Of a stretch of 64,000 nt of DNA, positions 6,688 through 54,078 are shown piece after piece (the stretch's first letter is position 1; each line of letters begins with the position of its first letter). Below the pieces are notes generated by a model. The model did not search any database, was not told where the DNA came from, and saw only the letters and a program-made list of their open reading frames with translations. This DNA is from a virus. Its lineage: Duplodnaviria > Caudoviricetes. The position numbers and the translations under genes were made by a program. The stretch spans positions 105,749-169,748 of the IMG/VR virus record IMGVR_UViG_3300037255_000025. One strand, written 5' to 3'.

Positions 6688-7020
6688 GTGCCCTGGATCA
6701 TCAAGCTCACGGAGCTGGCCACGACGCACTGGCCCTCCCCGGGACGGACGGCGTACCTGCGGGCGTGGCCCCAAGGCCCTGTTGGGTGGCGCGCCGTCCA
6801 GATGACGCACATCGTCGCGACCGACGGCGCGGCCGTTTGGGTGCCAGAGCTGAGCCTGGCGAAGGTGTTCGCCACCGAGGAGATCGCGCGCGCCGCGGCG
6901 GACCGATGCCGGTCCAAGATCGGGGAGGCGCGGTTTGTGCGGCTTGAGTTCGCGGACTGGGCGGGGGAACTGTTGGAGCGAGAAGCCGCCCACGCTGGGG
7001 GTAAGGGACCGCGAACGTGA
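6688..7020 (+). CDS. small paralogue family member
   Basis: PWIIKL...AKVFATEEIA...WAGELLEREAA; stop overlaps tnpB start. Confidence 0.75.
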   Translation: MPWIIKLTELATTHWPSPGRTAYLRAWPQGPVGWRAVQMTHIVATDGAAVWVPELSLAKVFATEEIARAAADRCRSKIGEARFVRLEFADWAGELLEREAAHAGGKGPRT

Positions 7021-8240
7021 AGATCCTCCGAGCGTACAAGACCGAGCTGGACCCCACGGTCTCCCAGACCGAGCAGCTCCTACAGCACGCCGGTTGCGCT
7101 CGCTGGGCTTACAACTGGGGTCTCCGAAGGAAGATCGAGTCCTACGAAGCTACGGGCAAGAGTCCGTCCTGGGTGGATCTCAACCGCGAGCTGAACGTGA
7201 TCAAGAAGCTCCCCAAGGAAGCCGGCGGGGTCCCGTGGATGTACGAGTCCTCGAAGTGTGCCCCGCAGGAAGCGCTCCGAAACCTTGATCGAGCCTTTGA
7301 GGGCTTCTTTCGTCGGTGTAAGAGCGGCTCGAAGCGGAAAGGCTTCCCTCGGTTCAAGTCTCGTAAGCGGGGCATCGGTAGCTTCAAGTTCAGCGGAACG
7401 ATTCATGTAGAAGAGCGACGGGTTCAGCTTCCCCGTCTCGGGAAGATCAAGCTCAAGCAACGCGGGTACCTCCCGACCTCGGGGGTGAAGATCCTCTCAG
7501 CTTCGGTCTCGGAGCGAGCGGGGCGGTGGTTCGTTTCGATCCAGGTTGAACAGGGGCTACCGGATCCCGCACCCAAGCCCACGTCGGTTCTCGGGATCGA
7601 CGTTGGGATCAAGAATCTCGGGGTCACCAGCGAAGGCGAGGTCTTCTCCAACCCGAAGGCGCTCCTGGCAGCGCAGAAGCTTCTCCGAGCGCGTCAGAAG
7701 TCTCTCGCGAGAAAGACCAAAGGATCGAACAACAGGAGGAAAACGGCCGCTAGGGTCGCCCGTCTACACGCTAGGATCTCCAATATCCGGAGGGATTCGA
7801 TCCACAAGATGACGACTGCGATCACCAAGCAGGCGTCGGTTCTCGTGATCGAGGATCTCAACGTCCTTGGGATGCTGAGAAACCACTGTCTCGCCCGGTC
7901 TCTGTCGGATGCCTCCCTCGGGGAGATCCGCCGGCAGCTCACCTACAAGAGCAAGTGGCGCGGGGTCGAGCTTCGGGTAGCGGACCGCTTCTATCCAAGC
8001 AGCAAGAGGTGCTCGGGGTGTGGAGCGGTCAAGGTCTCGCTCTCGTTGGCCGAGAGGGTCTACCGATGCGAGCTTTGTGGTCTCGTGATCGATCGAGACC
8101 TGAACGCTGCCCTCAACTTGAAAGATTTGGCCGGGAGTTCCCCGGTGCAAGCCTGTCGCCCTGGAGGCTCTGGTGCTGCTCTTACGAGCGGTACGAAACC
8201 TCTGGTTGGGCAGGAACCGAACCGGGAGGCTTCCTCGTGA
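7017..8240 (+). CDS. tnpB: RNA-guided endonuclease TnpB, copy 1
   Basis: RAYKTEL N-terminus; RuvC GIDVG / IEDL / DRDLNAA; CxxC-CxxC zinc ribbon. Confidence 0.95.
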   Translation: MKILRAYKTELDPTVSQTEQLLQHAGCARWAYNWGLRRKIESYEATGKSPSWVDLNRELNVIKKLPKEAGGVPWMYESSKCAPQEALRNLDRAFEGFFRRCKSGSKRKGFPRFKSRKRGIGSFKFSGTIHVEERRVQLPRLGKIKLKQRGYLPTSGVKILSASVSERAGRWFVSIQVEQGLPDPAPKPTSVLGIDVGIKNLGVTSEGEVFSNPKALLAAQKLLRARQKSLARKTKGSNNRRKTAARVARLHARISNIRRDSIHKMTTAITKQASVLVIEDLNVLGMLRNHCLARSLSDASLGEIRRQLTYKSKWRGVELRVADRFYPSSKRCSGCGAVKVSLSLAERVYRCELCGLVIDRDLNAALNLKDLAGSSPVQACRPGGSGAALTSGTKPLVGQEPNREASS

Positions 8241-8281: not shown

Positions 8282-8764
8282 GTCGTCGACTGCGCGGCCG
8301 ATGCCCCGCCGGCCGCGGCGGTCTCGCCCATCGACTTCCTCAACGCCCAGCTCACCCAAGTGACGCAGGAGCTCGACGAGGCGCTGGAGAAGCTCGAACG
8401 GATGCCGTGCGGTCACGCGCGGTTCGAGCAGCACCGAGAGATGCACGCGAGCGCTACGCCGTACTGCACGGTCTGCCGGATCAACCACGACTACCGGGTA
8501 CTCGAAGAAGAGGAAGCGCGTCTCGACCTAGCGCTCGAGAAGACCCAACAGGAACTCGATCGTGTCCGCACCGCGCTGCAAGAGGCCTCCGTGGTTGCGA
8601 CGAAGGCCACCGATAGGCTTCTGGATTCCCTGCCCGGTCGGGTCCTTCGCCCGTTGCGCGAGGCGGTCGATGCGCTGCGCAAGTCCGGCGACATCGAGGG
8701 CGTGATGAACGCTCAGCGCGACATCATCGATGCAGCGCTTGTGCTGTTCCCAGAAGCAACCTAG
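8237..8764 (+). CDS. coiled-coil hypothetical protein
   Basis: GTGA overlap with tnpB stop; CGH...CxxC motif; start uncertain. Confidence 0.55.
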   Translation: MKQTGPENVFGPFFQVVDCAADAPPAAAVSPIDFLNAQLTQVTQELDEALEKLERMPCGHARFEQHREMHASATPYCTVCRINHDYRVLEEEEARLDLALEKTQQELDRVRTALQEASVVATKATDRLLDSLPGRVLRPLREAVDALRKSGDIEGVMNAQRDIIDAALVLFPEAT

Positions 8765-9462
8765 CGATCAGCCCGTTCGGCACGGGCGATCATGTCGTCG
8801 TTCGCCGCCCTGTGGGCTTCCCTGTCGTGGTGATCTTCCGCGTGCGCGTGAGTCGACGCCATCAACGTGTTGCTGGCCTTCTTCCACGCGTCCTTCGCGT
8901 CGGAGTGGGCTTGGGCTGCGTTCTGGTGAAGCTCTTCGAGGGTTTGGTCACCGCGAGTGACCCCCGCGTTAGCCAACTTCGTGGCAGCGTTAGCGGCCGC
9001 CGACGCGGTCTTCGCCGCGTTTTCCTTCGCCGATGTCTTCTGCGCCGCCACGTCTAGGGTCTTCGCGTCGCCTTGGTGCGCGGTCGCGGCCGCTTCGTGC
9101 GCCGTGGCCGCTTTGTCGTGTTGCTCGACGGCGTTCTCGTGGGCGTATGCCATGTCCGGCGTATCTGTCTTCTTCTGCTTCTCATGGTCCGCGGAGGCTT
9201 CCTTGTGGGCCCCCGCAGCCTTCAGGTGCGCGGCAGCCGCATCCTTGTGCGCGGAAGACGTACCCTTGTCCTGGGCCGCGCGCGTCGCGGCCCCAGCTGC
9301 TTGTGACAGTTTCGCCGCGGCCCCCGACTTCCCGCCGAGGTCTTCAGTTCCCGAACCGCGGCGCTCCGCCGCGTTACCCGCGCCGGTAGACGCGAACCGG
9401 CCGTGTTCATCACGCTCGGCCTTCGTCACCAGGAAGCTCAACCGCTTTCGAGTCGTTTCCAT
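8761..9462 (-). CDS. Ala/His-rich helical protein with RDEHGRF motif (putative virion-internal)
   Basis: VTKAERDEHGRF; HxxAAxAH repeats. Confidence 0.65.
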   Translation of the reverse strand: METTRKRLSFLVTKAERDEHGRFASTGAGNAAERRGSGTEDLGGKSGAAAKLSQAAGAATRAAQDKGTSSAHKDAAAAHLKAAGAHKEASADHEKQKKTDTPDMAYAHENAVEQHDKAATAHEAAATAHQGDAKTLDVAAQKTSAKENAAKTASAAANAATKLANAGVTRGDQTLEELHQNAAQAHSDAKDAWKKASNTLMASTHAHAEDHHDREAHRAANDDMIARAERADR

Positions 9463-9490
9463 CGCAGGTACCTTACCTCAAGCGGGTGTT

Positions 9491-10306
9491 TTAACGGAGA
9501 CCGAGCGCTCGGAGCTTCTTTTCCACAGTTGAGCGGGCACGGCCGAGATCCCGGGGCCAGTCGACGACCTTGACGATCTCGAGGCGCTCGAGCGCCGCGT
9601 TGCGCGCGGGAGTCGGCTCGGGCTCGGCCTTCCAAAGACCGTTGACGCCAAGCCGGCTTCGCTCCGCCGTTTGCTCCGGGGGCGCCGCGCTGGGCTCCTG
9701 GCACTTCTTGACCCGGCCGTCCGCGACGTCATCGATTTGCTCCGCCGGCAGGACCTCGTTCCCCGCGTCGGCGTCGACGCCCGCCCGGAGGAACAAACCA
9801 CGGGTCCGCGCCGACCGGGAGGAACTCGACTTGGCCGTGGGTCCCGCCGCGGGGGCCCCGGGTTCAACGATCTCGGCCAGCATCCACAGCGGCTTGTTCA
9901 GTTCGTGCAGGACGTCATCGAGCACGCGGTACGTGTCGGGATCGCGCTCGCCCGCGACGCTCGCGCGCGTGCTGCTGAGCCGCCGCACGACCGTCTGGAG
10001 CATCGTCCGGATCGCCGCCGCGACCGCGATGCCCGTGAGACCCTCGAACGACGGCGTGGGCAAGTCGGTCACGACGGTCTCGGCGACGCCGCCCAGCGCC
10101 CGCACGCGCTCCATCACGGCGTCGGCATGCTCGGTCAGCAGCCCCTCGTAGAGCCGCTCGAGGAACCGATGGAGCGCCAGGAACTGCGGGCCCGTGACGT
10201 TCACGTGCGCGTTGTGCGCCGCCAACCCAAGCGCGTTCAGCTCCGAGGCACGCCGGTTCAGCTCCGCCACGAGAGAAGATCGCTCAACGTCGGGCATCGT
10301 CATCAC
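9491..10306 (-). CDS. dps: Dps/ferritin-like protein with C-terminal extension
   Basis: AHNAHVNVTGPQFLALHRFLE and DAVMERVRALGG Dps signatures. Confidence 0.85.
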   Translation of the reverse strand: MMTMPDVERSSLVAELNRRASELNALGLAAHNAHVNVTGPQFLALHRFLERLYEGLLTEHADAVMERVRALGGVAETVVTDLPTPSFEGLTGIAVAAAIRTMLQTVVRRLSSTRASVAGERDPDTYRVLDDVLHELNKPLWMLAEIVEPGAPAAGPTAKSSSSRSARTRGLFLRAGVDADAGNEVLPAEQIDDVADGRVKKCQEPSAAPPEQTAERSRLGVNGLWKAEPEPTPARNAALERLEIVKVVDWPRDLGRARSTVEKKLRALGLR

Positions 10307-10391
10307 CTTGTACCTCTACCAGCGAGACGCGCGGACCGCGAGTTCTTCGGACCAAGAGCTGCGCGCAGTTGAGAGCCAAAGGCGGAAAGAG

Positions 10392-13300
10392 CTAGACGGG
10401 CGTTCGCCTAGCCAAACCACTGATGCTCCAACCAGTGTACTGGCCCGCCTTGATCTGCGCCCAAATCTCGTCGTCGACCACCCTACAGGCGAGCAACCAA
10501 GTCCCCTTCGCGACCTTACGGCCGTTGATGATCAGGTCACAGGGTGCGATGTAACTTTCTACCGGTCGCAAATGCCCGTTCACGAGGACCTTATGCTGGA
10601 GATCGATGTTCCGGTAGTCCTCCATCCAGCGGTGCGCCGACTTGGCGATCTCATCGGCGTCGTAAGTGTCGAATTGCGCGTCCACCGACGGGGACGGCTT
10701 CAGCACAATTCCAAGGATGTACCGCTGCTCTACTGGAGCCGCGTCGTCGGCTTTCCCGACCTCGACGATCTCGACCTCGCGCTCGTCGGCCTTACGGACG
10801 TGGCGCTCGTTGATGAACCCTGGGTCGCCCGTACCCTCGGCTGCGGGCACGACCGGGATGAACGGCCGCGTCATCGAGTCCGCGGAGTCGCTGGCCTTCT
10901 GGGCGAGACCTTCGAGTGAGCGGTCTGGCGTCGGCGTGTTGCCCTCGGCGGCGCGCAACGCGGCGCGCACGTCAGGACCCGCGGCCTTTTGGGCGAACTT
11001 CCCGTCGTCCTCGCGTGGCTGGTCACCGCCAGACCCCGCGCCCTTGTCGTCCGCCTTTGAGCCGGTTCCGTCGGGCTTCGCCACCGCGACCTTCTCGGCG
11101 TGAGCCTGGCCCGCGTCGAGTTCTCCCTGGAGGTCGGCCCAAGCCTTCGGGTCGTCGATGTCCGAGTGGAGCCGGTCGAGCGCGTCGTGGGTCTTCTCGG
11201 CTGCGGTCTTGTGACCCTCGGCGGCCTCTTGGTGGCGCTCAACGCCCGCCTTGTCGCCCGCCTCGGCGGCCGCGACGGCGGCGCGCGCGTGCTCCGCCGC
11301 GGCTTGCTCGTGGTCCCCGGCGACCTTTGCGGCCGCGGCGGGGTCGGGCTTCGCGGCCTTGTCCCCGTTGAGCTTGTCTCCGCCGGGCTTCTTTCCGTCA
11401 GCGGCGATCTGCCGCGAGGTCGTGCCCGCGCGATCGGAGGCGTGCTGCGAGACGATGTCGAGTGCGTTGGACACGACGTTCAGCGTCGAGTGGAGCAGGC
11501 TCCGGGCATCGGTGATCTGTGCGGCCTCGTGCAGCAGGTCTAGCCCATGGCCCGCGCGGGGTGCGGCTCCGTTGGCCGTGCTACCGCTTCCCGAAGCGCG
11601 CGGGGTCTTACCGCCCGAAGCCGCCCGCGGGGCCCGGTCCTCGCCCGACAGGGGCGCACGGCGGTCGTGTTCGCTCACGCGCGCGCCGGTCGAGCGATGG
11701 TGCTCGTCGACGTGGACCGACGCCTTCGCGACCGCGGCCTCGTTGATGTCGTCGAGGAGCTTGCGCGCGGCAGCCGAGCACGACGCCTTCACGTCCGCCG
11801 GCAGGTTTGACTGCGGGATCCGCGCGAGCGCGTTGCGCACGTGGGCCGCGTCGGGCTTGCCGTCCGGACCCCGGACCGGGAAGTGCCGGAGCGTCTTGGG
11901 CGTCGTCTTGCCGTCGACCTTCTCGCCGCCGGACTCGACGTGGAGGAACGCGGAGTCCGGAAGGTCGTTTACCTCGGCAGAACTCCACTCGGCTTTGCGA
12001 ACCTCGGCGAGGTCGAGCGCCGCCGCCACTGAGTCCTCAAACGCGTCCGCCAGGAGCGCCTTCGTGACCTCGGCGGGTTCGAGACCCAACAGGGCCTTCA
12101 CCATCTGCACCGACGTGGTCTGGATGCACTTCAAAGTCGCCGAGGGCTCGTGTTCTTCGAAGGCTGCCGCCGCCTTGTCGGCGTCCTCGAAGCCAAAGAG
12201 GATTGCGTACTCGGAAAACTGGCTGTCGGCTTTCTGGTGTACGGCCCATTGGGCGCGAGTATCGTTCGCCTTCGGCCCGAGGAAGACGTCCAGGCCCGTC
12301 CCGACATCCCCCGCGATCCCGGGGATGAATCCGTAGTCGAACTTGTAGACCAAGTCGCCCAATTCACTCTTCTGAACGAACCCCGCGGGGCGGTCGACGT
12401 GGACCGGGACGCCTTGGTAGTCGACCTTCTTGATGACGGGACCGCGGGGTGCGCGTCCCGTCGGAAGTGGCTGGCCGGGGGCGTCGTAGCCCTCGGTGTG
12501 CCCCTCCTCGCCGACGACCTTCTGCGATACCGCGTAGCCCACGGGGGTGTCGCGCCGGACCGTGTAGCCCGCGCCGGGCTCGGCTCCGCCGACGCGCTCG
12601 TCAGGACCGGGAACCTGCGGGCTGTTCTTCGCCGCGGGCTCGATGCCGTCGTCCTCATCCGACGGGAGCTTCGCTCCCTTACCGGGCGCGGGAGGCCGCG
12701 GCTTTCCCGGAGCCTTCGGGGTCCTGGCCGCAACGCCGCTCTTCGGCGGCCCCGCCGTGGTGTCCGCGGGGTCCTCCCCAGGCGGGGCCTTGCCGTCGGG
12801 ACCCGTCTGGTCCTCGCCCTGTCCGGCGAAGTCGCCCAGGCCCGCGCCTTCGGCGGAGTCCGTCGGCGCAACGCCACTCGTCAGGTCGTCCCAGTCCTTG
12901 TCGGTCATGGACGCCAACGCGTCCTGGATGCCGGCGAGGATCGTGTTGGTGAACAGCTCGGTCCCGTCGTCATCGCCGAGGTCGGCCTTGAACGTGACGC
13001 CGATGGCACGCTGGGCCGCGTGCTTCGCCAAGTGCTCGACCGTGTGTTCGGCCGCGTGAGCCGCCAGGTGGTGCGCCAGGGCCTCGGCAAAGTGCGGGAC
13101 GGCGTGCTCGATCGCGGACCCAACGGCGTGTCCGACGCCGGGCAACGCGGCACCAACGGCGGCGAACGCGAGCTTGACCGCGACCTTGAGCGCGACGGTC
13201 CGCATCGCGGCCTTCTGCTCTGGCGTGACTTCTTTGCCCGTAACGGCGCTCTTGAGCCCCTGAGCCGCGGTCTTGACCAATCCGACCTCGTGCATGACCG

Positions 13301-13883
13301 CGCCCTTGAGCGCCTGGGGCGCGCCCTTGATCTTCTCGACCGCGGACGCCAGCGCGCCCTTGACCCCGGCGGCGAGCTTCGCCGCGCCCCCGGCGGCGCG
13401 CCACGCCGCGACCTCGGCCTTGTTCGGCTGGGTCAACGGGGTCGCGCGCGGGTCGGGTGAACCGTTCGGCTTGGCGCCCGCGGGACCCGCGTCGGGCTTG
13501 TCCCCAGCCGGCTTGGCGCCCGCGGCCCGACCCTTAGGCTCCTTCGCGGGGTTCACGTCGGTGTACTGGTTGTGATGCGCCTTGCTGACGTCCCAGTCCT
13601 TCAGCAGGCGCGTGAACTTGTCCTCGTGCGCCTGGTCCGGGACCAGCATTCCACCCGAGGCCAAGTCGCTCTCGCCCACCGGACCCCCGGCGAGCTTGTG
13701 GAGCGACTGGACCGCCGACTTGGCCGCGCGGGCGAGCCGGTCCTGGGCAGCGCTTTGCGCCATCGCGATCTCGGCCGCGAGGTCACCCCGCAGGCTCCGC
13801 ACGACCTGGCCCGCCCGGGCCGACAGCGCCGCGGGCGTGATCTCGGATTCCTCACGCGGCGTGAGCTTCGTCGGCAGGGGCAT
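10392..13883 (-). CDS. multidomain head protein: PPase-like domain, LPDSAF domain and C-terminal XkdF-type prohead protease
   Basis: DYGFIPG..GLDVFLGP; NDLPDSAF..HVRNALAR; VDAQFD..IDLQH..VESYIAP..KGTWLL..TGWSISG. Confidence 0.8.
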   Translation of the reverse strand: MPLPTKLTPREESEITPAALSARAGQVVRSLRGDLAAEIAMAQSAAQDRLARAAKSAVQSLHKLAGGPVGESDLASGGMLVPDQAHEDKFTRLLKDWDVSKAHHNQYTDVNPAKEPKGRAAGAKPAGDKPDAGPAGAKPNGSPDPRATPLTQPNKAEVAAWRAAGGAAKLAAGVKGALASAVEKIKGAPQALKGAVMHEVGLVKTAAQGLKSAVTGKEVTPEQKAAMRTVALKVAVKLAFAAVGAALPGVGHAVGSAIEHAVPHFAEALAHHLAAHAAEHTVEHLAKHAAQRAIGVTFKADLGDDDGTELFTNTILAGIQDALASMTDKDWDDLTSGVAPTDSAEGAGLGDFAGQGEDQTGPDGKAPPGEDPADTTAGPPKSGVAARTPKAPGKPRPPAPGKGAKLPSDEDDGIEPAAKNSPQVPGPDERVGGAEPGAGYTVRRDTPVGYAVSQKVVGEEGHTEGYDAPGQPLPTGRAPRGPVIKKVDYQGVPVHVDRPAGFVQKSELGDLVYKFDYGFIPGIAGDVGTGLDVFLGPKANDTRAQWAVHQKADSQFSEYAILFGFEDADKAAAAFEEHEPSATLKCIQTTSVQMVKALLGLEPAEVTKALLADAFEDSVAAALDLAEVRKAEWSSAEVNDLPDSAFLHVESGGEKVDGKTTPKTLRHFPVRGPDGKPDAAHVRNALARIPQSNLPADVKASCSAAARKLLDDINEAAVAKASVHVDEHHRSTGARVSEHDRRAPLSGEDRAPRAASGGKTPRASGSGSTANGAAPRAGHGLDLLHEAAQITDARSLLHSTLNVVSNALDIVSQHASDRAGTTSRQIAADGKKPGGDKLNGDKAAKPDPAAAAKVAGDHEQAAAEHARAAVAAAEAGDKAGVERHQEAAEGHKTAAEKTHDALDRLHSDIDDPKAWADLQGELDAGQAHAEKVAVAKPDGTGSKADDKGAGSGGDQPREDDGKFAQKAAGPDVRAALRAAEGNTPTPDRSLEGLAQKASDSADSMTRPFIPVVPAAEGTGDPGFINERHVRKADEREVEIVEVGKADDAAPVEQRYILGIVLKPSPSVDAQFDTYDADEIAKSAHRWMEDYRNIDLQHKVLVNGHLRPVESYIAPCDLIINGRKVAKGTWLLACRVVDDEIWAQIKAGQYTGWSISGLARRTPV

Positions 13884-13967
13884 GGTGGGGCGAAGCCTAC
13901 ATCGGAAGACGCCGCGGCGTCACCTCACCCGCGCTAAGGCGGCGCCGACCGGGTAAGATGCTTCGCG

Positions 13968-14165
13968 ATGCCCTACCGCCTGACGATCGACCTTTCCGAC
14001 GCCTACGCGGCGAAGCTCCGGGCGCTCGCGGAGACCCGGAAGCGGTCCCCCGAACAGTGCATCCTGGACTTCCTCGCGGCCTGTCAGCCCGGCGGGTCGG
14101 GTTGGCGTAACCCCGCGGACGACCACCACGAACGGGCAGACGAACCTGAAGGTGAAAAACCGTGA
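13968..14165 (+). CDS. ribbon-helix-helix (CopG-like) protein
   Basis: RLTIDLSD..AKLRALA...RSPEQ. Confidence 0.6.
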   Translation: MPYRLTIDLSDAYAAKLRALAETRKRSPEQCILDFLAACQPGGSGWRNPADDHHERADEPEGEKP

Positions 14166-14386
14166 CCCCGACGGCGTCTCAGCAGCGCGTGCTCGAGTGT
14201 CTACGGGCGACGCCGGGTTGGCTGAGCCGCATGGCGATCGTCCGCGCGACAGGCTTGGGCCGCGAAGTTGCGGCGGAGGCGCTACACGCCCTACGACGCG
14301 CTGGCCTCGTGGAGCGGACGTTCGAGGACAGTGGGATCTGGCGATGGGTGCAAACGAGCACCCCCGGGGGTAAGGGGCCCGTATGA
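14162..14386 (+). CDS. winged-helix DNA-binding protein
   Basis: IVRATGLGREVAAEALHALRRAGLVER..WRW. Confidence 0.65.
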   Translation: MTPTASQQRVLECLRATPGWLSRMAIVRATGLGREVAAEALHALRRAGLVERTFEDSGIWRWVQTSTPGGKGPV

Positions 14387-14622
14387 AGCCCGCCGAAGTA
14401 ACGATGCCCGCCCCCGCCCGCATGACCAAGATGCTGAACGACGCCGCCTACGACGTGGAGCTGGTGGTGCGACGCCGCGCCGAGTCCACTGCGGACCCTG
14501 ACGCGCTCACGATGCCGTTCGAGATCCCGATCGGCGCCGATGAGCAGCGCAAGATCCAGGGCCTCATCGCCGCGAGCCAAGAGGGCGACGAGGGCCCAAA
14601 GTTCGGACCGCCCGCGGAGTAG
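14383..14622 (+). CDS. hypothetical protein
   Basis: Coupled ORF with GGGTAAG motif upstream. Confidence 0.55.
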   Translation: MKPAEVTMPAPARMTKMLNDAAYDVELVVRRRAESTADPDALTMPFEIPIGADEQRKIQGLIAASQEGDEGPKFGPPAE

Positions 14623-15255
14623 CTACTCCGACGAGAACTTTCCGTGGTCGTCGCGGTGGACGCCCGGGCCAGTCTTCGGCCTAGGGTTCCCACTCGTCGT
14701 TGCCATGTTTTTGAGGCCCTCGGCCACCGCTCGGGACAACGCAACCCCGCGTGCGCCGCCGTACTGAGCGCGGAACGCCTTCGCGGCCTCGGCGGCGCGC
14801 TTTCCCGCTTCCATGTCGATGACGCGCTTGGCCTGGTTCCGTAGGGCCTTCCAGTCGATCGTTACACCGGAGGCTTTGGCGTACGCGGTCCACTGCCGCG
14901 TCGTCTTGTCCTGCTTGGCGCTGTTACAGGACAAGCAGCAAGTCAGCATGTTCTTCGCGTCGGACCCGGCACCATCAAGGTTGCGCGCCAGGATGTGGTC
15001 GATCGTGAGCCCCACGCCCTGCCCAGTCGGGTCCTTCGTGTGGCAGTAGGCGCACGAGTGCCCATCGCGGGCGTACACGGCGTGGCGCGTGGGCTCATAA
15101 ATCTTCACCGTTTTGGCGCTCTTGCGGAGGAACGCGAGGGCTTTGCGGGTCGCGCGGACCGCCTTCATCTCGTGACCCGGCGGCGCCACGGCGTTCTCCG
15201 GCTGCGAGACCTCCTGGAGCTTCGCGGGCTCGGTACCTAGAAGGAAGTGGCGCAC
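14623..15255 (-). CDS. HNH endonuclease with C-terminal RDDHGKF motif
   Basis: RDGHSCAYC...TIDHI...NMLTCCLSCNSAK. Confidence 0.85.
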   Translation of the reverse strand: MRHFLLGTEPAKLQEVSQPENAVAPPGHEMKAVRATRKALAFLRKSAKTVKIYEPTRHAVYARDGHSCAYCHTKDPTGQGVGLTIDHILARNLDGAGSDAKNMLTCCLSCNSAKQDKTTRQWTAYAKASGVTIDWKALRNQAKRVIDMEAGKRAAEAAKAFRAQYGGARGVALSRAVAEGLKNMATTSGNPRPKTGPGVHRDDHGKFSSE

Positions 15256-15267
15256 GGTCCGAGAGCG

Positions 15268-16176
15268 TCAGGCCGGGACGTAGCTGACGCGGACCTGGAC
15301 GGGGTTCTCGCCCAGCATCGCGACCTTGCCGTCGAAGATGTACGGGACGCTGTAGAATGTGTCCTGGTAGCAGTACACGACCGAGTCGACGTAAACCTCG
15401 CGGGGCCACGGTCCCTCGCCGCACATGTTCCCGGTCTCGGGCTTCGGCGGGTACCGGAGGTTGAGCGCGGCGCGGATCGCTCGCTCGACGGTGTCGAACG
15501 AGGGCCCGACGGCCTTGGCGACGCCGCGCATGTCGAGCGCCTGGTCTTGCTTGGTGACCTCGCGGACCGGGACCACGCCACCCTCGACCTTCCCGCGGTC
15601 GGTCGGCTCGGGCTCCTTGGTCTGCGCCCGGACGTCGTCGCCCGTGCTTCCCTTCTGAGCCTTGGCCTTCTCGGATTCTTCCTCCTTGGCGATCTTCGCG
15701 GCCTTCTCGATGGCATCGTCGCGGCGCGAAGGGTGGCCCTTGAACGCCGCCGCGAGGTCCTGGGGCCACGCCTTCGCAGAGGCTTCGAGCGCGGCCTTGG
15801 CCGCCATCTCGACCTCGGTCGAGTCCCCGCCGTCGTCGTCTTTCTTGGCGGGCGCGGGCGGCGCCTTCATCTTGCCCACGAGGTCGAGCGCGGCCTTGGC
15901 GGCGGCCGAGAGCTTGAGCGGGGTCTGCTCGCCCTGGATGTTGGCGGAGGCGTTGGGCTTGACCTCGTTGGCGTCCGCGGCGGTCGACGAGTCGTGCGTC
16001 GTGGCCCAGGGCATCTCGGTCTTGGCCACCGGGATCAGTTCGTCGCCCCGCCGGTGCGTGAGGTCCTGTGCCGCCTTCGCGACGGAGCTGTACGTGGCGG
16101 TCACCGGGGCAGGCGCGACGCGCTCCCGGAGCCTACGCGCCTTCGCTTCTGCCGCGACGTCTTCGATGATGGCCAT
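15268..16176 (-). CDS. putative head morphogenesis/scaffold-like protein
   Basis: Ala/Lys-rich with several VxKA motifs; first gene of the head-associated operon. Confidence 0.5.
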   Translation of the reverse strand: MAIIEDVAAEAKARRLRERVAPAPVTATYSSVAKAAQDLTHRRGDELIPVAKTEMPWATTHDSSTAADANEVKPNASANIQGEQTPLKLSAAAKAALDLVGKMKAPPAPAKKDDDGGDSTEVEMAAKAALEASAKAWPQDLAAAFKGHPSRRDDAIEKAAKIAKEEESEKAKAQKGSTGDDVRAQTKEPEPTDRGKVEGGVVPVREVTKQDQALDMRGVAKAVGPSFDTVERAIRAALNLRYPPKPETGNMCGEGPWPREVYVDSVVYCYQDTFYSVPYIFDGKVAMLGENPVQVRVSYVPA

Positions 16177-16262
16177 GTCGGGCAGCCTACACGCGCCCGC
16201 CTAGGTGTTCAACGTCGTGCTGTCCCGGCGCGCCCGGGCGAGGTAGGCTGCCCGACATGGCC
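16171..16262. promoter_or_regulatory. divergent promoters within a perfect 20-bp inverted repeat (GTAGGCTGCCCGACATGGCC)
   Basis: Arms 16171-16190 and 16243-16262 each contain TAGGCT-N7-ATG of the divergent genes. Confidence 0.8.
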
Positions 16263-16691
16263 GACGACCCGTACCGTTACGCCGCCCCCACAGGGAACAC
16301 ACCAAAGAAGGACGGCGCCACGGCGTGGTCGGTCGCCGGGCCCCACGGCGAGGCCTGGATGCGGAGCCTGTCCCCGATCGACGCCACGAACTTCAACGCG
16401 ACCGGCGCGATCAACACGGTCCCGACGGGCTACTCGACCTATCCCAGCGCCCCCGGGATCGACCTCGTGGCGCTGAGCAAAGCGCGCAAGAGCGACTCAA
16501 ATGGCGATGGCACCGGTGTGGGGCGCCGCGCCTCGGGGTTCCTCGCGGCCGACAGCACGGGCGGGACCGTCGTGTTTACGACAGGATCGGGCCAGGTTGA
16601 GACCTGGGTCGTGCCGGCGGGCGGTGGGGCCTCGGTCGAGATGACGCACCTCGCCGCATACAGTGGCACGAACCTGATCGTGTTCTGGTGA
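16257..16691 (+). CDS. hypothetical virion-associated protein
   Basis: Beta-rich ORF heading a fibre operon. Confidence 0.55.
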   Translation: MADDPYRYAAPTGNTPKKDGATAWSVAGPHGEAWMRSLSPIDATNFNATGAINTVPTGYSTYPSAPGIDLVALSKARKSDSNGDGTGVGRRASGFLAADSTGGTVVFTTGSGQVETWVVPAGGGASVEMTHLAAYSGTNLIVFW

Positions 16692-17995
16692 GCGCCGCGA
16701 TGAACCGGCCAACGAAGCTCGCGCGAGGACTCGCGATCCTCGCGCTGGGCCTCACGATCGGTGCGTGCGGTCAGTGTGGCCCCGCACCGACGCGCGTGGC
16801 GTCGACGTCGGAGACCAGCACGAGCGCCGGCAAGCTCGTCGTCCCGGAGGTGCAGTTCCCGGTGAACGGTCGGAGCCCGTGGCAACCCGGCGGTGTGGAG
16901 GGTCCCGGGGGGCCGTCCATCATCGCCTCCGCCAACTTCACCGCGCTGGCGACGAGCGGAGGGGTGTTCACCGTGCCCCCGTCGTGGCTGTCGATCTCGT
17001 GCGCGACGACGGGCCGAACGGTCCAAACGAGCGCCTCGACGATCGTGTCGGGAATCGGCGCGAACGCCTGGCGAGCCCGTAACGTCGGTAGCGGGCTTGG
17101 TCTATCCGTCGAGTCGAACCGTACCAATTTCGCCACATATGGAGCGTCCGGGACCTCGGGGTGGTCCACAAACGGGGCCACGATCACGGCAGCATCCGGG
17201 CCAGACGGAACGGCGAATGCTGCCGTCACCGTCGCGTGGACCGCAGGCACGTCCGTCGCGGGATACGCCGGCGGAGGAGCCTCCAGCAATGCCGTCTCGT
17301 TTTGGGAGCGCGACTTGGGCGGGTCTCAGACCATCGGCTTTTTCGACATCCAAACAGGCTCACCGACGATGGTGCTCAATACCGCGCCGACATGGGCTCG
17401 GTACTCGACCTCTGCGTGGGCTGCTATCAGTCCACAAGGGCTGGGTTGGGGCTCGTGGTCGGGAGCGCCAAATCCAAACGGTTCTGGGACTGTGTGGGGA
17501 TCGCAAATCGAGACAGGGCTATATCCGTCGAGCGTGATCCCAACGAACGGGTCTGAGGACATCCGCGCCGCTGACACGCTGAGCACGACGACCGCGATCG
17601 CGCCGTCTGGGCGGCTCAACATGACCGAGGTCGTCGCGCCCAACTTCGCGAGCGGCGAGCAGGGTGTTGACTCGCCGATCCTTTGGTGGAGCTCGACGAA
17701 TCAGATATACCTCCAGCAGAGCACCGGCAAGGTCGTCGTCGATGTCGGTGGCTCGCCGGTCCTCACGAGCGCGGCGCTCACGTGGTCGCGCGAGCAGGCG
17801 ATTACCGTTGCCGTTCACCTCACGCCCTCCGGCGCGCTCTCCCTCACCGTGAGTGGAGCGACGACGGGCAACGGCACCGTCAACACCACCGGCGTCGGCA
17901 CCTTCAGCACGGGCGCGACCTCCTATCTGCTCGGTACGTCGAGCGGCGCGCAAGAATGCGCAGACCTCCGCAGCGTGAGCTTCGCGGCGCCATGA
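16688..17995 (+). CDS. fibre/spike-like lectin-fold protein with N-terminal lipoprotein-like signal
   Basis: GLSVESNRTN and YPSSVIPT..RAAD patterns seen in phage spike/fibre proteins; LGLTIGAC. Confidence 0.6.
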   Translation: MSAAMNRPTKLARGLAILALGLTIGACGQCGPAPTRVASTSETSTSAGKLVVPEVQFPVNGRSPWQPGGVEGPGGPSIIASANFTALATSGGVFTVPPSWLSISCATTGRTVQTSASTIVSGIGANAWRARNVGSGLGLSVESNRTNFATYGASGTSGWSTNGATITAASGPDGTANAAVTVAWTAGTSVAGYAGGGASSNAVSFWERDLGGSQTIGFFDIQTGSPTMVLNTAPTWARYSTSAWAAISPQGLGWGSWSGAPNPNGSGTVWGSQIETGLYPSSVIPTNGSEDIRAADTLSTTTAIAPSGRLNMTEVVAPNFASGEQGVDSPILWWSSTNQIYLQQSTGKVVVDVGGSPVLTSAALTWSREQAITVAVHLTPSGALSLTVSGATTGNGTVNTTGVGTFSTGATSYLLGTSSGAQECADLRSVSFAAP

Positions 17996-19629
17996 TCATC
18001 GACCGATACCCGAAGCTTTCCGCCGCGCTCATGGTGGTCCTCTCGGTTACGTTGGCCGTATCCATCACGCAGCTCCTCGGACTTCTCGGGCTCGACGCCC
18101 GCGCCCCCGCGTACGCGCCTATTGCGCACCCCGTAACGGCACGCGTAACGACGTACAGCGACGCCACGGTGGTCGACACGGTCCTGGGGCCGCTGGACGG
18201 CGGGTTCCGCACCGGTGACCTCGCGACGCTGGCTCGCGGGTCGACCGGGCTGTCTGCGTCTACGGTGTTCGCGACCGGGGCCATGACCGCAGGAGACGGC
18301 GCGGGAGGAACGTTTATCTGGGCCCCCTCGGCTCCCACGGCCGACGACGGCTGCACCGTGATCGTGCCAATCGACAGCTCTGGACACCCGTCGCCTGGTG
18401 CGTGGGTCCGCCAGTGGTCCGGTCCGATCGACGTGCGCTGGTGTGGCGCAAGTAGCTTCGGATCCGCCGCCGCAAACACCGTCGCGATCAACAACGCCTA
18501 CAAGCTCGCCGTGGCGCGACAGAGCGCATACCTCGGCCAGTCCGCGGTGCTCCTCAGCGGCTCGTTTCGCATCTCCGGGACGATCCTGGTAGGGGCACCG
18601 GGTGGCGGTTACACCTCGGTCAGCACGATCGGGGAGGGCAATTTCGCGAGCGGGCTGCAATGGGATCCGTCTGACGAGGCACTCGACGCCGGTGTGGGCG
18701 ACGCGGGCACCGATGCCGGCGTCGACGGGTTGCCGGTCGCGCAGAACATCGCCGTGCTGTATTGGAACAATATCGGCGCGACGATGCGAAATGTTACGAT
18801 CCAGTATGTCGGCGCGACACCCGCGACAAATTCTGTAGGGCTAGCGTTGTCTGGCCCGACCGCGTCGATGGATTCGAACCAAGACACCTTCGACACAGTG
18901 ACCGTGTACGGCTTCGCTACCGACGTGGCCGTTGGTGGCGTCAACACTGCGGTGGCGGGCCAAGACTGTGCGGCTCAGATCGCCTTCAACGATACCTATC
19001 TCGAGGGCGCGACCTATGCCGGAATCCAAGGCGGCGGGGACGGTAACTCTCTGGAGATCAGCTTCAAAAATGGCGGATTGGCCGGAAACTACATTGGGGC
19101 TGCCCTGGGAACAGCGGGGGGTTGGTCATTCGAAGGCGGCGGCAGCAGTGGCAACACCTTCGCCACCTTCGTTTTCCTAAGCGAGTGGCAAGGTCCGTTC
19201 AGCTTGCGAGACTGGCGCTTTGAGATGGCAGCCGGCGAGATCGCGATGAGCGGCGCGACGCAAGCCACCGTTGACGGCTGCACATTCCAGATGACCGCCG
19301 CGCCGACTGGATACAACGTGCCGATCTCGCTGTCTGGATATACGGCTGCCAAGATCACAATCCGCAACTGCGCCTTCGCCAATAACTTCGGATCCGACTA
19401 CCCCGAAATCGCGGCCCCGTCGAACACCACAGGGTCGGTTAGCGCGATCGAGTTCGTCAACAATCGACTCGATAACCCTGCTTCTGTGCCGTTCTTTTTG
19501 TACCCAGGTGGCGCATCCAACGGGATGCGCTACTCGATGTGGGGAAACTACCTCGACGGCGGGAATCAGGGGCTGCACATCGGCACGATCGTCGACGGCG
19601 GAATGGTCGACTCGGTGTCGTCACCGTAG
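17992..19629 (+). CDS. tailspike-like beta-helix protein (pectate lyase-like) with hydrophobic N-terminus
   Basis: GDGAGGTF.W..DDG..IVP..G.WVRQ..IDVRWCGA tailspike N-domain followed by beta-helix-like repeats. Confidence 0.7.
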   Translation: MIIDRYPKLSAALMVVLSVTLAVSITQLLGLLGLDARAPAYAPIAHPVTARVTTYSDATVVDTVLGPLDGGFRTGDLATLARGSTGLSASTVFATGAMTAGDGAGGTFIWAPSAPTADDGCTVIVPIDSSGHPSPGAWVRQWSGPIDVRWCGASSFGSAAANTVAINNAYKLAVARQSAYLGQSAVLLSGSFRISGTILVGAPGGGYTSVSTIGEGNFASGLQWDPSDEALDAGVGDAGTDAGVDGLPVAQNIAVLYWNNIGATMRNVTIQYVGATPATNSVGLALSGPTASMDSNQDTFDTVTVYGFATDVAVGGVNTAVAGQDCAAQIAFNDTYLEGATYAGIQGGGDGNSLEISFKNGGLAGNYIGAALGTAGGWSFEGGGSSGNTFATFVFLSEWQGPFSLRDWRFEMAAGEIAMSGATQATVDGCTFQMTAAPTGYNVPISLSGYTAAKITIRNCAFANNFGSDYPEIAAPSNTTGSVSAIEFVNNRLDNPASVPFFLYPGGASNGMRYSMWGNYLDGGNQGLHIGTIVDGGMVDSVSSP

Positions 19630-20913
19630 CTAGCCGCGGGGCTTGGGCCGCTCGAGGACCAGTTCCGAGCCGGTCGCGCTCAACGTCCCACCGCACCCGT
19701 GGCACTTCACCGACTTGGTCGAGCGCATCGACGTCGGGTGTTCAAAGTCCCGCACGGCGGGCGTCGGGTTGGTCCGCGAGGGCTCGCCGACGGGCGCGCA
19801 GCTCGTCGTCACGCCGGACTCCTCGAGCCCCCAGTCGTCCGCCAGTACCATGATGGGCTTGCGGCACCCCGGGCAGCAGACGACGTAGCTGAAAGCCTTG
19901 CCCTTGTGGGCCCAGCGGCGTGCATCACCAGGCAGCATCTTCTGGGCACACCCCCACGGAGGGTACGGGCGGATCAGGGCTCGGACGACCGGTTCGAGCG
20001 GGCTCAGTTTCACCGTCGACCCGAGCGCGCTGCGCGATAGATATCGACGGCGGCGTCCGTAGGGTCCGCGTCAAACCAACCGAGGTTTTCTTGGTCCGAA
20101 AACAGGACCCCGCGATACCCCTTGGGCGACGCCCGGACCGTGTCACCGATCCCGACCGCTTCAGTGTGGTACACGACCGCGATGCCTCGCGCGTCCAAGG
20201 CAGCCCACGTGTTGGAACCCCGCCAAGGTTTCGCCGGACCCCACGTCGCGCCAGGTAGGCGGGGGGCCGTCACGGCTCCACCATGAGCCGTGCGACCGTT
20301 GCGGTCAGTTCAGCCACACGACCGAGCGCGCTGTGTAGCTCCACCCGCAGACGCAGCGCCTCTTCCTCCCAGGTTTCGACCCGACCGACACGGCCGTCCT
20401 CGAACGTGACCGAGGTCGCGCGGCCCCCGCGGTCGACATCACTGATCGGGTAGGTCTCGCGCGGCTGCTTGCGGCCGAAGCCTTGGCGTGGCGGGCGTTC
20501 GAGCCTGACCTGCGCCGAGGCCGACACGTACTCGGGCAGGGTCGCTAGACCGCCCTCGTGCCAAACGGGAACGTCGTGGTGCCGACCCATCAGCGCGTCT
20601 TCTTTGCGGGCTTCGGCTTCGCCGGCCGCACCGGAACCTGGAGGAAGTCTTTCACTTCCTTTCGGGTTGCCGCCAACCGCGCGAGCTGTAGCGCTTCGCC
20701 GAACCCTCGTGCGTACCCCGCGGCCTCCTCGAGCGTTGCGCCCCCGAAAAACACAGCATCGGGCGAGACTCCCAGGACCACGAGGTGTTCGGACGGACCG
20801 TACACGAAGAGGTGGTCGTAGCCGCGTTCGTTCGTCTTCGGTCCGTCGAGGTAGGGCGAAACCTTCACCCGGTTCAGAAGGCTGTTGAGCGTGTCGTAGT
20901 CGCGTGTGTTCAT
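19630..20913 (-). other. four coupled hypothetical ORFs (20590-20913, 20270-20590, 20010-20273, 19630-20013)
   Basis: Overlapping start/stop codons; GGGTAAG motif before the first. Confidence 0.6.
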
Positions 20914-20944
20914 ACGCGGGCCCCTTACCCGCCGCGGCGCGCGT

Positions 20945-22915: not shown

Positions 22916-22941
22916 CGCGGACCCAGCCTACCACGCGATGG

Positions 22942-23807
22942 CTACTGCTCGTCGACGTCGATCCAGCCCGGACCTCGGCGAGAGCTAGCCGCAGCGCTCA
23001 TGCGGGCACGAGTCTCTTCCGGTACTCCGAAAACGCCGCGGTTGTGGGCGGGTCGCCCCTTTGCGGTAGCGCTAATCTTTTCTCTCGATTCCGCCGACCA
23101 CACACGTGTCCTGTTTCGCGCCGCGAGCGCGGCGCTGAAAGCTGGTCCCATCTTCTTACCAAGTTGGGCCGCTCCGATCTTCGCGCGTTGTTCGGCCGGG
23201 AGCGTCTTTCCTAGGTGTGACGCGCGCATCTTCGCCCTCGTCTCGTCGGTCGGGTGGCTCATCAGCTCGCGATGACGCGCGAGCTGCTCCGGCGTCCGCT
23301 TCTTTCCTCGGTTCGCGTCGCCGATCTTCTTCGGGCCGCTGGGTCCTCGAAGCGCTTCTTCTGCACCACGCTTCTCGCGAGAAGTGACGCCGCGTAGCCC
23401 TCGGGGTCCATTAGGCGCCGCCTCGCGTGTCCGTCGCGGATCGCCTTCTTCGCCTCCTCGGATAGAGCCCCGCCTGCTCCGCCGAACCGGCGGTTGAAGC
23501 CCTTCGGATCCATCGCGTCTAGCTCACGGATCCAGAAGGTCTCGGCCTCGTTGAGTTCACGCTGGGTCACGCCCTCCACGACCTCAAGGATCGTCTCCCG
23601 GAAGGCCCCACGGCCAACCTGTCGCAGGTAGAGGTCGAAGGGCGCGACCCTGCCGATGAGGTGGCCGCGCATGCGCGTCTCGAAGTCCCGCGCCTGGCCG
23701 ACGTAGTGCCGACCCGTCGTGACCTCGGTCAGGAGGTAGATGACGGCGCGGGTGACGATCCTCGCCTCATGGGCAATCGTCCTGGCGCTCTTCTTGGCTG
23801 CTGCCAT
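22942..23807 (-). pseudogene. GIY-YIG homing endonuclease with NUMOD3 repeats, split by a frameshift near 23330
   Basis: VIYLL..HYVGQ..R.R.H; KKIGDANRGKKRTPEQ lies upstream in the frame of ORF 22942-23262. Confidence 0.8.
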
Positions 23808-40035: not shown

Positions 40036-40867
40036 GGAGCCTCCGCAGGACCTCGGCGGCGGCCCACCAAGCAAGCACACCGCCCACGCGGCCCCCGCCG
40101 GTCGCGACCACGATACCGGGCGACGCCTCTCGCACGGTGGGCTCGGGCAGGACAGGGCGCATCCCCCAGATTGAACCACGATCCTCAAGCGTGCCCACAG
40201 CTTCTTGGAGCGGACCCAACGCCCGCACGCGCATTTTCTCTGTGTAGTCGTGCGCGCGCGATGGATCGCGCTCCAAAGTCTCGCCAAGCCGCACGACACC
40301 CAACCCCCACGAACGCGCCGCGTAGGCAAAGTACGACGTCACCGGGACCAGCATCGTCCGTGCGGGCGTTCGCTCCGCCTTGAACAAGAGACCGCGCCCG
40401 CCGAGCGCCTCGACGCCCACGAGGGCAAGCCCGCTTGCGTTCAGAATCTGGTCCGTCCAGACGCCCGCGGCGAGCACAACAAGCCCGCCCTCGACAACGT
40501 CGCCCCCCTGGAGGTGTACGCGGCCGCGCTCGACGCGCGTGACCTTCCCCGCAGCCCGCTCTGCGTAGAGCGCCAAAACGTCCTCGGGCCAGAACGTCGC
40601 CCAGTCCAACCGTGCCTTGCGTCCGACGACATCGGCACCGTCGAAGTCAAAAACAGCCCCGTGTTGCCGTCCGAGCGACTCGGCTGCGCGCGCTCGCTCG
40701 GCCCAAAGGCCCTTGTACCAAGAGCGCGCGTAATAGCCGCTCGCCGCTCGTGAGGCCGCGCTGGGCTCCGCCGAGTCGATCAAGGTAACAGACGCGCCTG
40801 CGTCGGCCGCGACCCGCGCGATAGCGGTCCCCCAGAAGCCGCCGCCCACCACGACGAGGTCCTTCAA
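40028..40867 (-). CDS. FAD-dependent oxidoreductase (DAO/glycine-oxidase-like)
   Basis: VVVGGGFWG dinucleotide fold, ASRAASG, VLAAGVW, WGMRP. Confidence 0.85.
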   Translation of the reverse strand: MKDLVVVGGGFWGTAIARVAADAGASVTLIDSAEPSAASRAASGYYARSWYKGLWAERARAAESLGRQHGAVFDFDGADVVGRKARLDWATFWPEDVLALYAERAAGKVTRVERGRVHLQGGDVVEGGLVVLAAGVWTDQILNASGLALVGVEALGGRGLLFKAERTPARTMLVPVTSYFAYAARSWGLGVVRLGETLERDPSRAHDYTEKMRVRALGPLQEAVGTLEDRGSIWGMRPVLPEPTVREASPGIVVATGGGRVGGVLAWWAAAEVLRRLRG

Positions 40868-53931: not shown

Positions 53932-54078
53932 GCGCTACCCCTTACGTTCTCCGGGGCCGGTTTGCTTCACGAGGAAGCCTCCCGGTTCGGTTCCTGCCCA
54001 ACCAGAGGTTTCGTACCGCTCGTAAGAGCAGCACCAGAGCCTCCAGGGCGACAGGCTTGCACCGGGGAACTCCCGGCC
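53925..54078 (-). ncRNA. omegaRNA of tnpB copy 2 (scaffold ends 53945; guide TAAGGGGTAGCGCGTGGCGC)
   Basis: Shared 3' boundary with the other copies. Confidence 0.75.

Follow-up and report, generated by a model that had tools for sequence, protein, structure and literature searches.

In silico analysis of the virus record IMGVR_UViG_3300037255_000025 from IMG/VR, a tailed phage (Caudoviricetes) of 169,748 bp with a G+C content of ~68%, revealed a set of head-associated proteins, four of which share a short conserved peptide, R[DE][DE].G[RK][FWY] (here named the RD heptad). The window, i.e., the whole stretch of DNA analyzed, is the final 64 kb of this record, and coordinates are window positions unless marked "genome". 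The four bearers of the heptad are a 233-amino-acid (aa) protein (8761-9462), a polyvalent protein of 1163 aa (10392-13883), an HNH endonuclease (14623-15255), and a polyvalent protein of 1102 aa (47769-51077), all encoded on the minus strand. Our set of 180 called genes, obtained with a heuristic based on G+C at third codon positions (GC3), was divided into nine head proteins (4,689 aa), namely, seven named in an earlier note on this DNA plus the scaffold and the capsid protein, and 171 others.

Scanning all six frames of the whole genome yielded exactly four matches to the heptad, compared with ~0.03 (0.002 + 0.028) expected by chance from residue shuffles of the 180 called genes. All four lie in the coding frames in which the earlier note had reported them, and none was found elsewhere: ERDEHGRF (9394-9414) at residues 16 to 23 of the 233-aa protein, PREDDGKF (10995-11015) at about residues 956 to 963 of the 1163-aa protein, HRDDHGKF (14635-14655) four residues ahead of the stop codon of the HNH gene, and IRDEHGKF (50547-50567) at residues 170 to 177 of the 1102-aa protein, each on the minus strand. 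The four DNA copies differ in codon usage, which argues for conservation at the protein level and against a recent DNA repeat, and we conclude that the heptad is a real, selected element common to the four proteins. The scaffold of the phage itself and its Dps-like protein are devoid of the heptad in the six-frame scan.

The surroundings of the heptad were examined in both polyvalent proteins. In the 1163-aa protein, it lies in a Gly-rich linker ~90 aa ahead of the protease domain, and an AlphaFold2 model of residues 925 to 1163 shows this region as disordered (pLDDT ~37 to 43), with no docking on the protease in cis. The 1102-aa protein carries the header AVEK-AGDFDESTVI-RDEHGKF, in which K-AGDFDESTVI-RDEHGKF is a long form at the consensus spacing of a wider motif described below. 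This header is kept in both orthologues that cover the region (P0159, 93% identical; P0160, 56%), and 13 remoter homologues have only the kinase-like module in common and no heptad copy (0/13).

The enzymes proposed for this set, i.e., Dps, HNH, PPase-like, Nudix, kinase, and ADP-ribosyltransferase (ART), could all be recovered, the last two by conserved residues only. The Dps/ferritin-like protein (9491-10306, minus strand) matched the Pfam family Ferritin (PF00210; 9.9e-18; 64.9 bits, cut-off 24.5) over residues 14 to 148 and has a 120-aa tail that bears LWKA and WPRDL. The 1163-aa protein contains an InPase domain (residues 486 to 596; 12096-12428; PF18823, 39.2 bits, cut-off 26.8), a DUF6582-like LPDSAF domain with VRK-A-EWSS ahead of it (residues 632 to 721; 11721-11990), and a C-terminal XkdF-type (Peptidase_S78_2) head protease domain (residues 1052 to 1160; 10404-10730), all on the minus strand. 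Also on the minus strand, the 1102-aa protein combines a Pfam NUDIX domain (49422-49760), a kinase-like module (residues 593 to 840; 48558-49301), and an ART-like end (47772-48230). Alignment with 15 homologues showed an invariant Gly-rich loop, Lys, Glu-His, D..N.D, and R.D.G in the kinase-like module and an invariant Arg, S-x-S-W-S, and E-x-E in the last 220 residues, the latter being the pattern of Arg-Ser-Glu ADP-ribosyltransferases. Homologues with the kinase-like module carry ADPrib_exo_Tox, ART, and Phage_Mu_F domains (PF03496, PF01129, and PF04233). The HNH protein matched Pfam HNH and has an extra C-terminal tail of ~80 aa ending in HRDDHGKFSSE, which is present in none of seven non-self homologues of 118 to 156 aa. 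PHROGs agreed with the Pfam calls for Ferritin, InPase, Peptidase_S78_2, HNH, NUDIX, and Phage_portal.

Three further members were identified by other means or only in part. The His/Ala-rich, helical 233-aa protein has no Pfam or PHROG family and no homologue by search; in its N-terminal stretch RLSFLVTK-A-ERDEHGRF, a hydrophobic-x-Lys site abuts the heptad, and it is the only protein in which a putative cut site is followed by the motif at the very N terminus. A 302-aa protein (15268-16176, minus strand), likewise without a Pfam or PHROG family, has a C-terminal domain (residues ~213 to 301), with GVAK-AVGPSF ahead of it, that is homologous to a module of the polyvalent protein of two related loci, L054 and L055, in which the InPase domain also has homologues. 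The portal (20945-22915, minus strand; Pfam Phage_portal) contains VVKS at residue 18 and VEKA-IVISVSG at residue 40. His/Ala helical repeats, said to recur in three of the proteins, are strong in the 233-aa and 1163-aa proteins (residues 233 to 309 in the latter) and weak in the 1102-aa protein. In other loci, His/Gly/Lys- or His/Ala-rich low-complexity stretches lie directly ahead of the RD motif or protease domain (L054, 13561-14952; L055, 13846-16713; L086, 5842-6561) and echo the His/Ala repeats of the phage itself.

Each of the two polyvalent proteins thus unites at least two disparate activities in one chain (InPase plus XkdF protease; NUDIX plus kinase-like plus ART-like). Multi-enzyme head proteins that are predicted to be packaged, processed by a peptidase, and injected are described in the main text of Iyer, Burroughs, Anand, de Souza, and Aravind 2017 (PMC5512222) as phage-type polyvalent proteins, on which the InPase family (PF18823) was also defined. 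The likeness extends to unrelated enzymatic domains within a chain, to the head-gene context, and to InPase, NUDIX, ART, kinase, and MuF/portal fusions. The same text ascribes processing to a zincin-like metallopeptidase, a domain that such proteins often but not always have, whereas here an XkdF-type serine head protease is fused instead, and no Pfam family of zincin-like metallopeptidases was found at E ≤ 0.01 in either polyvalent protein. The set is very probably head-associated polyvalent cargo. This upholds in outline the multi-enzyme head cargo proposed in the earlier note. The Dps-like protein is without the heptad, and its putative link to the head is a different motif, WPxDL, which it has in common with scaffold C termini.

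A search with the portal returned 80 related loci (28 to 44% identity). In the closest two, L054 and L055, the gene order is portal, MuF-like, two small genes, InPase polyvalent protein, XkdF protease, scaffold, and HK97-type capsid protein; the InPase protein is split into two open reading frames (ORFs) in L054, forms one ORF of 955 aa in L055, and contains the heptad within GGGDGR[SA]RD[DE]HGRFASK in both. The gene split in L054 puts the motif at the C terminus of the upstream protein. Among ORFs of at least 100 aa in the 80 loci (1.15 Mb), the strict heptad occurred six times, compared with none for the reversed pattern; three of these cases are clear (L054, L055, and L089) and three are doubtful. 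With the L054 and L055 proteins, the scaffold (genome 1352-2653) and the HK97-type capsid protein (genome 2712-3671) of the phage were found, both on the plus strand. Its portal gene lies 7 kb from the polyvalent gene on the same strand, and the L054/L055 orthologues of the latter lie between portal and capsid protein. The MuF-like gene that follows the portal in relatives was not found in the phage genome by tblastn. A megablast search of positions 8700-23000 against cultured phages gave no match, and the portal is ~30% identical to portals of Rhizobium phage vB_RleS_L338C, of Bacillus and Agrobacterium phages, JP1 among the latter, and of many Streptomyces phages.

The assignment of an XkdF-type protease next to the tagged enzymes was borne out by the Peptidase_S78_2 match at the C terminus of the 1163-aa protein (94.3 bits for the protein, cut-off 24; 99.3 bits on the genome) and by the PHROG head maturation protease (8.2e-35). 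Asp, His, and Ser residues are invariant in 32 sequences, all of them present in the phage domain (fragment residues 144, 173, and 229), and we infer from this conservation that they are the catalytic residues. In the AlphaFold2 model, the protease domain is confident (pLDDT 80 to 95). Foldseek returned no match in the PDB at E ≤ 0.001. With VIA-align, the best match was the T4 gp21 protease (Z 7.2, root mean square deviation 3.3 Å over 100 aa, 20% identity), followed by the varicella-zoster protease (Z 4.5) and, lower, the cytomegalovirus (HCMV) protease (Z 3.4). That the top fold matches of the model are capsid-assembly proteases is coherent, although a Z score of 7 alone is no proof. In relatives, the XkdF domain is often the C-terminal part of long ORFs with 300 to 1,258 residues upstream, which indicates that fusions of polyvalent protein and protease are usual in this lineage.

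The earlier note had also listed eight hydrophobic-x-Lys-[Ala/Ser] sites as possible cut sites of this protease, and all eight are present. Over the nine head proteins, [VILMF].K[AS] occurs 38 times compared with 14.1 expected from whole-protein shuffles, and it is 2.6-fold enriched relative to shuffles of 15-residue blocks (14.7 ± 3.6; 0 of 500 reach 38). In the 171 other genes, 54 sites were observed and 56.4 expected, and ten control patterns, in which the motif was reordered or had residues exchanged (reversal, Arg or Glu for Lys, etc.), were at expectation. The sites are therefore above amino acid composition in the head proteins, a count that is to be read with the caveat that seven of the nine were chosen in the earlier note on account of these motifs. 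The scaffold, which was not part of that choice, is an independent case and contains nine sites compared with 1.5 expected. Placement at domain boundaries was seen for six of nine sites of the 1163-aa protein (within ~20 residues of a domain edge), but the 1102-aa protein has only one clear site, 11 residues ahead of the RD motif.

Conservation in relatives points in the same direction. In ~50 of them, the capsid protein begins with 8 to 15 residues followed by h-h-x-K/R-A-D (h, hydrophobic), which reads SAIEK-ANA in the phage itself. Scaffolds of at least 17 loci share the N-terminal motif EVSLVDRAANxRxFLVxK, which ends in FLVxK and here reads GLVDRAANEETFLVVK-AA; scaffolds that start in this way include genome 1352-2653 and L054 17482-18582, and the N terminus of the 233-aa protein (RLSFLVTKA) resembles the final part of the motif. 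Portals of relatives have a conserved N-terminal hhKAxhhG (VEK-AIVISVSG in the phage), and at least 70% of 32 sequences have a Lys after a hydrophobic strand directly ahead of the protease domain, the phage having two such sites, HVRK-ADE and EVGK-ADD. In eight loci, the stretch h-x-K-A-x-W-[ST]-[ST]-A stands ahead of the DUF6582-like LPDSAF domain; it reads VRK-AEWSS in the phage, and L055, L070, L071, L078, L082, L094, and L096 have this header too. Cleavage of the capsid protein by the HK97 S78 protease also falls after Lys. In HK97, ~104 residues are removed from this protein according to the relevant part of PMC9024508. Among the literature found on XkdF-type proteases, there was, judged by titles and abstracts, no measured cut and, judged by titles, no paper on specificity. 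From enrichment and conservation at the N termini of capsid protein, portal, scaffold, and protease domain, hydrophobic-x-Lys is probably the cut site of the XkdF head protease, as had been proposed.

The heptad is not private to the phage. Searching IMG/VR for the exact coding pattern of RD[DE]HGKF gave 52 loci. In ~24 of these, the heptad, usually in the form PRDEHGKF, belongs to a linker rich in Pro, acidic residues, or Gly within a head or polyvalent protein. In L036, for instance, this linker-type heptad follows an S78 head protease domain at a distance of 20 residues; in others, it stands behind portal/MuF (L009, L017, and L018), between TopoIB and NUDIX (L035), ahead of ART (L023), and 30 to 65 residues from the N terminus of 280- to 370-aa proteins, one of which matches a scaffold PHROG. 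The other loci comprise 5 in frames shorter than 100 aa, 10 scattered single cases, and 13 low-GC viral loci that share YWGRDEHGKFHMF within a DUF6267 protein of ~630 aa (L004, L005, L007, L010, L016, L025, L028, L029, L034, L037, L039, L047, and L051). In this family, the heptad stands in a globular-looking context and is probably unrelated to the linker motif.

A profile of 36 columns was built from 29 linker-type stretches and searched in 1.84 billion cluster representatives, of which 476 matched at E ≤ 0.001 and 56 at 1e-10. The best 150 of the 476, on which all counts of copies, spacing, and consensus are based, are proteins of 307 to 7,334 aa with 2 to 16 matched stretches apiece; a regular expression recovered 477 copies, which are a median of 253 residues apart (interquartile range, 194 to 364). 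The consensus of 450 copies is [AK][ED][WFK][DY][ES]x[DL][HQ]-P-R-D-[ED]-[HD]-G-[RK]-[FW]-[TGA]-x-G-G-G, with WDExxHPRD (233 copies) and KYSxDQPRD (143 copies) as the two main forms and a Gly fraction of 0.32 in the eight residues after the motif compared with 0.09 overall. As judged from these alignments, the heptad forms the core of a widely distributed motif of ~20 residues, [WFY][DNS][EP]xx[HQ]P-RDxxG[RK][FW], accompanied by a Gly-rich linker (hereafter the RD motif), which lies upstream of the motif in the lineage of the phage and downstream in most others. The idea of a shared tag thus stands as far as a selected element is concerned, but this element is the core of a module header common to many phages. 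N-terminal copies were found within 30 residues (8 to 30) in 31 of the 150 proteins and within 70 residues in 76.

Among the 35 highest-ranking of these proteins shorter than 2,600 aa, 24 contain a Pfam family and 11 none. ART-type domains occur in 13 and Phage_Mu_F in 6; Phage_portal, Peptidase_S78_2, DUF2213, InPase, PI3_PI4_kinase, Zeta_toxin, FtsK, NUDIX, and SprT-like are found in one or two each, Peptidase_S78_2 being C-terminal as in the 1163-aa protein. The motif-bearing phages span 35 to 71% GC. The search of the profile against PDB sequences gave chance partial matches to actinobacterial cytochrome c only (E 0.65 to 1), so that no solved structure shows the peptide. A 44-residue motif stretch had no tblastn match among cultured phages; the 7-copy protein P0012 matched 14 of them via its ART module only. 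Of 21 loci with PRD[DE]HGKF in 185,579 bacterial and archaeal genomes, 4 were judged real (L145, L161, L163, and L164), and the others were dismissed as short or wrong-frame ORFs and one RpoB. The latter, an RpoB-like ORF in a Lentisphaeria metagenome-assembled genome (L165, 1633-3981), reads AQANAPRDEHGKF; E. coli RpoB presumably has a similar D-E-x-G-x-F stretch at this place, and the likeness is probably a coincidence. Two FtsK-domain proteins bear the motif, and the scan of bacterial and archaeal genomes neither proves nor excludes its presence in conjugative elements. The motif is named in no paper found; the main text of PMC5512222 has no fitting passage, though its supplements may show the motif, and none of the motif-related terms occurs in the searched text of the MuF toxin paper PMC5576092.

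What the RD motif does was considered with its distribution in mind. It may be a processing signal, i.e., an element on the prime side by which a peptidase recognizes where polyvalent proteins are to be split into modules. Such a role would fit a motif that recurs about every 250 aa at the borders of modules, as many as 16 times in one protein, that is also present where a fused portal, MuF, or protease domain already provides an anchor, and that in several cases has a Lys-Ala just upstream (MAK-AWNEEDHPRD, MTK-AEWDESKHPRD, and VEK-AGDFDES..RDEHGKF); peptidase processing of polyvalent proteins is itself proposed in the main text of Iyer et al. (PMC5512222). However, proteases of different families accompany the motif (S78 in L036, XkdF here, and DUF2213 in P0037), which makes one common specificity unlikely, copies 8 to 20 aa from the N terminus or 4 aa from the C terminus would release nothing useful, and the motif is modeled as disordered beside its own protease domain. 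Small phages provided a further test of this role, for which 12 to 16 kb around the motif was fetched from five virus records of ~40 kb (four judged complete). In all five, which represent three portal/capsid family pairs, the motif protein occupies the slot of the scaffold, flanked by portal and capsid protein, and one of these proteins is homologous to a protein of Pseudanabaena phage Pam5 that is annotated as scaffolding and is itself without the motif. None of the five records had a match to Peptidase_S78, S78_2 (XkdF), ClpP, or S49, and a relaxed pattern found no second motif copy. The motif therefore appears to work without a recognizable head protease or a second bearer, and we regard a processing signal as unlikely.

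Because scaffolds of these protease-less small phages carry it, docking or tethering is favored over a cleavage site, and its N-terminal, interdomain, or C-terminal placement (the last in the HNH protein and in L054) suggests a docking peptide that is independent of position. Pairing of like with like, in which cargo would bind to motif-bearing scaffolds, was rejected: the scaffold is the sole bearer in the five small phages, and the scaffold of the phage itself is without the heptad. The proposed course is as follows. Two polyvalent proteins, one ending in the protease, the Dps-like protein, the HNH protein, and two proteins of unknown fold would form the head-associated cargo. The RD motif would act as a tether between a component of the procapsid under assembly and a protein or, in a polyprotein, every single module, candidate receptors being the portal, the inner face of the capsid protein, or the scaffold core. 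The XkdF protease would cut at hydrophobic-x-Lys before Ala, Ser, or Asp and thereby trim the N termini of capsid protein, portal, and scaffold, release itself, and separate the modules. We give the combination of cargo set, docking peptide, and cut site an even chance of being right as a whole, and the docking role of the motif, taken by itself, falls a little short of that.

Several observations weigh against this combination. The peptide is near-invariant across phages with unrelated portals, capsid proteins, and scaffolds, which a phage-encoded receptor hardly explains, and modules fused to a portal or MuF anchor would need no loading tag each, which points to processing or a later role. 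In other phages, only 65 of 451 motif copies have a hydrophobic-x-Lys[Ala/Ser/Gly] site in the 25 aa ahead of them, which makes the pairing of cut site and motif specific to this lineage. The Z score of 7.2 falls in the range that the tool also gives to models without true relatives, and the Foldseek search was empty at its threshold. In relatives, the genes for portal, protease, scaffold, and capsid protein form one block; in the phage, ~110 kb of the record separates the first two from the last two, found at its opposite end, so that gene linkage is weaker. Our own gene calls, moreover, rest on the GC3 heuristic.

The near-invariance of the motif over phages of 35 to 71% GC with unrelated head proteins would also suit a universally conserved partner, such as host machinery or nucleic acid. 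The motif might accordingly act after ejection, guiding released modules to the DNA as it enters the cell or to some conserved target in the host, and most motif-headed modules are indeed host-directed enzymes (ART, Zeta toxin-like kinase, NUDIX, and InPase). Yet scaffolds, a head protease, and MuF/portal fusions bear it as well, and scaffolds of tailed phages leave the procapsid and are not ejected. The motif is also acidic overall, unlike known DNA-binding peptides, and a role after ejection seems quite unlikely to us. In a bolder form of the docking proposal, tailed phages of whatever family, with or without a protease, would use the RD motif as a portable, near-universal tag for procapsid loading; a conserved feature of the assembling HK97-fold shell or portal would read it, and one copy per module would hold the cut enzymes in the head. 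This form we consider doubtful.

The HNH protein could be a packaging-associated nuclease rather than an ejected effector. As a terminase nuclease like that of HK97, it would not be cargo; its tail would tie it to the portal vertex, and the portal would be the receptor for all bearers of the motif. Apart from the Pfam HNH match, this agrees with a tail added to an otherwise ordinary HNH protein of 120 to 150 aa and with MuF-type proteins, which often bear the motif and are described in the main text of PMC5512222 as portal-linked head components. The gene, however, lies ~22 kb from the large terminase (37222-40329) and not adjacent to it as for the HK97 gp74 type, and up to 16 copies per protein exceed the need of 12 portal subunits, all of which renders this arrangement very unlikely. 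The large terminase ORF encodes 1035 aa, and its N-terminal part matches helicase-loader-like and other terminase PHROGs; it is possibly a fusion or contains an inserted element.

The actual signal by which the Dps-like protein binds the shell may be a second motif, WPxD[LM]. It is found 17 to 40 residues from the C terminus of scaffolds across the lineage and also, often as RD.DGWPxDM, at the C terminus of the polyvalent protein in L054/L055 and, in at least seven loci, of proteins of ~300 aa; the loci with WPxD[LM] include L054, L055, L057, L058, L061, L063, L073, L081, L086, and L088. In the phage, it occurs as WPRDL in the tail of the Dps-like protein, 22 residues from the C terminus (about 9545-9559, minus strand), as WPQDL in the middle of the 302-aa protein (about 15754-15768, minus strand), and near the C terminus of the scaffold (genome about 2600, plus strand). 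These three matches in the head set compare with 0.022 expected and with none in the other 171 genes. Since C termini of scaffolds usually are the shell-binding part, WPxD[LM] is a better candidate for this signal than LWKA.

The neighborhood of the set has features of its own. Between the 302-aa gene and the portal (16257-19629), genes lie on both strands, including an ORF of 648 aa (17683-19629, plus strand) with coding-like GC3 and no family match. TnpB/IS605-type genes are repeated at 7017-8240 (plus strand), 53967-55190 (minus strand), and 63029-63784 (minus strand), and the copies are close, with identical antisense peptides at 54447 and 63509. The TnpB-type gene directly after the 233-aa gene may have broken up the head module.

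Loading by short peptides has precedents in a few model systems. The targeting peptide of T4 is removed at L/I-x-E. As presented in the relevant part of PMC9024508, the T4 capsid targeting sequence (IPIII and Alt) together with gp21 resembles the present case in that a short peptide loads unrelated proteins into the prohead in a manner coupled to head-protease cleavage; it differs in being an unrelated, N-terminal signal, whereas the RD motif is also internal or C-terminal, repeated, and present in protease-less phages. Likewise, P1 DarB is a giant multi-enzyme antirestriction protein that is sent into the head by a short terminal peptide, which also carries a reporter. Unlike the RD motif, this is a single N-terminal signal (first 30 residues) that needs other Dar proteins, and the same part of PMC9024508 reports no repeated motif.

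Two further systems invite comparison. As encapsulin cargo-loading peptides are short, conserved, and accompanied by Gly/Pro-rich linkers, and dock enzymes, ferritin-like ones included, inside an HK97-fold shell, they recall the arrangement proposed here; they have another consensus, are usually C-terminal, and serve non-viral compartments. Work by Duda, Oh, and Hendrix from 2013 is said to have found that the tail after the protease domain of HK97 protease gp4 brings the enzyme into the prohead, to which the RD motif of L036, ~20 residues after the S78 protease domain, would correspond. We know of no sequence likeness between the gp4 signal and the RD motif, nor, to our knowledge, has this signal been reported on other proteins. 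Multi-enzyme head cargo and head-loading tags are thus known, and the present locus belongs to this kind, with an XkdF protease in the place of the proposed zincin; new is the RD motif as a widespread module header.

Polyvalent proteins are thought to be the first-delivered weapons of a phage, and how they are loaded, cut, and held is known for a few models (T4, P1, and HK97). One peptide that heads the modules of hundreds of proteins and also occurs on scaffolds of small phages offers a testable handle on these steps. If the proposed course is true, a receptor of the RD motif may explain cargo loading across many phage families, and the Lys-specific site would be the first specificity for the XkdF protease family. 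Cargo could then be annotated from sequence alone, and chosen proteins could be loaded into phage heads.

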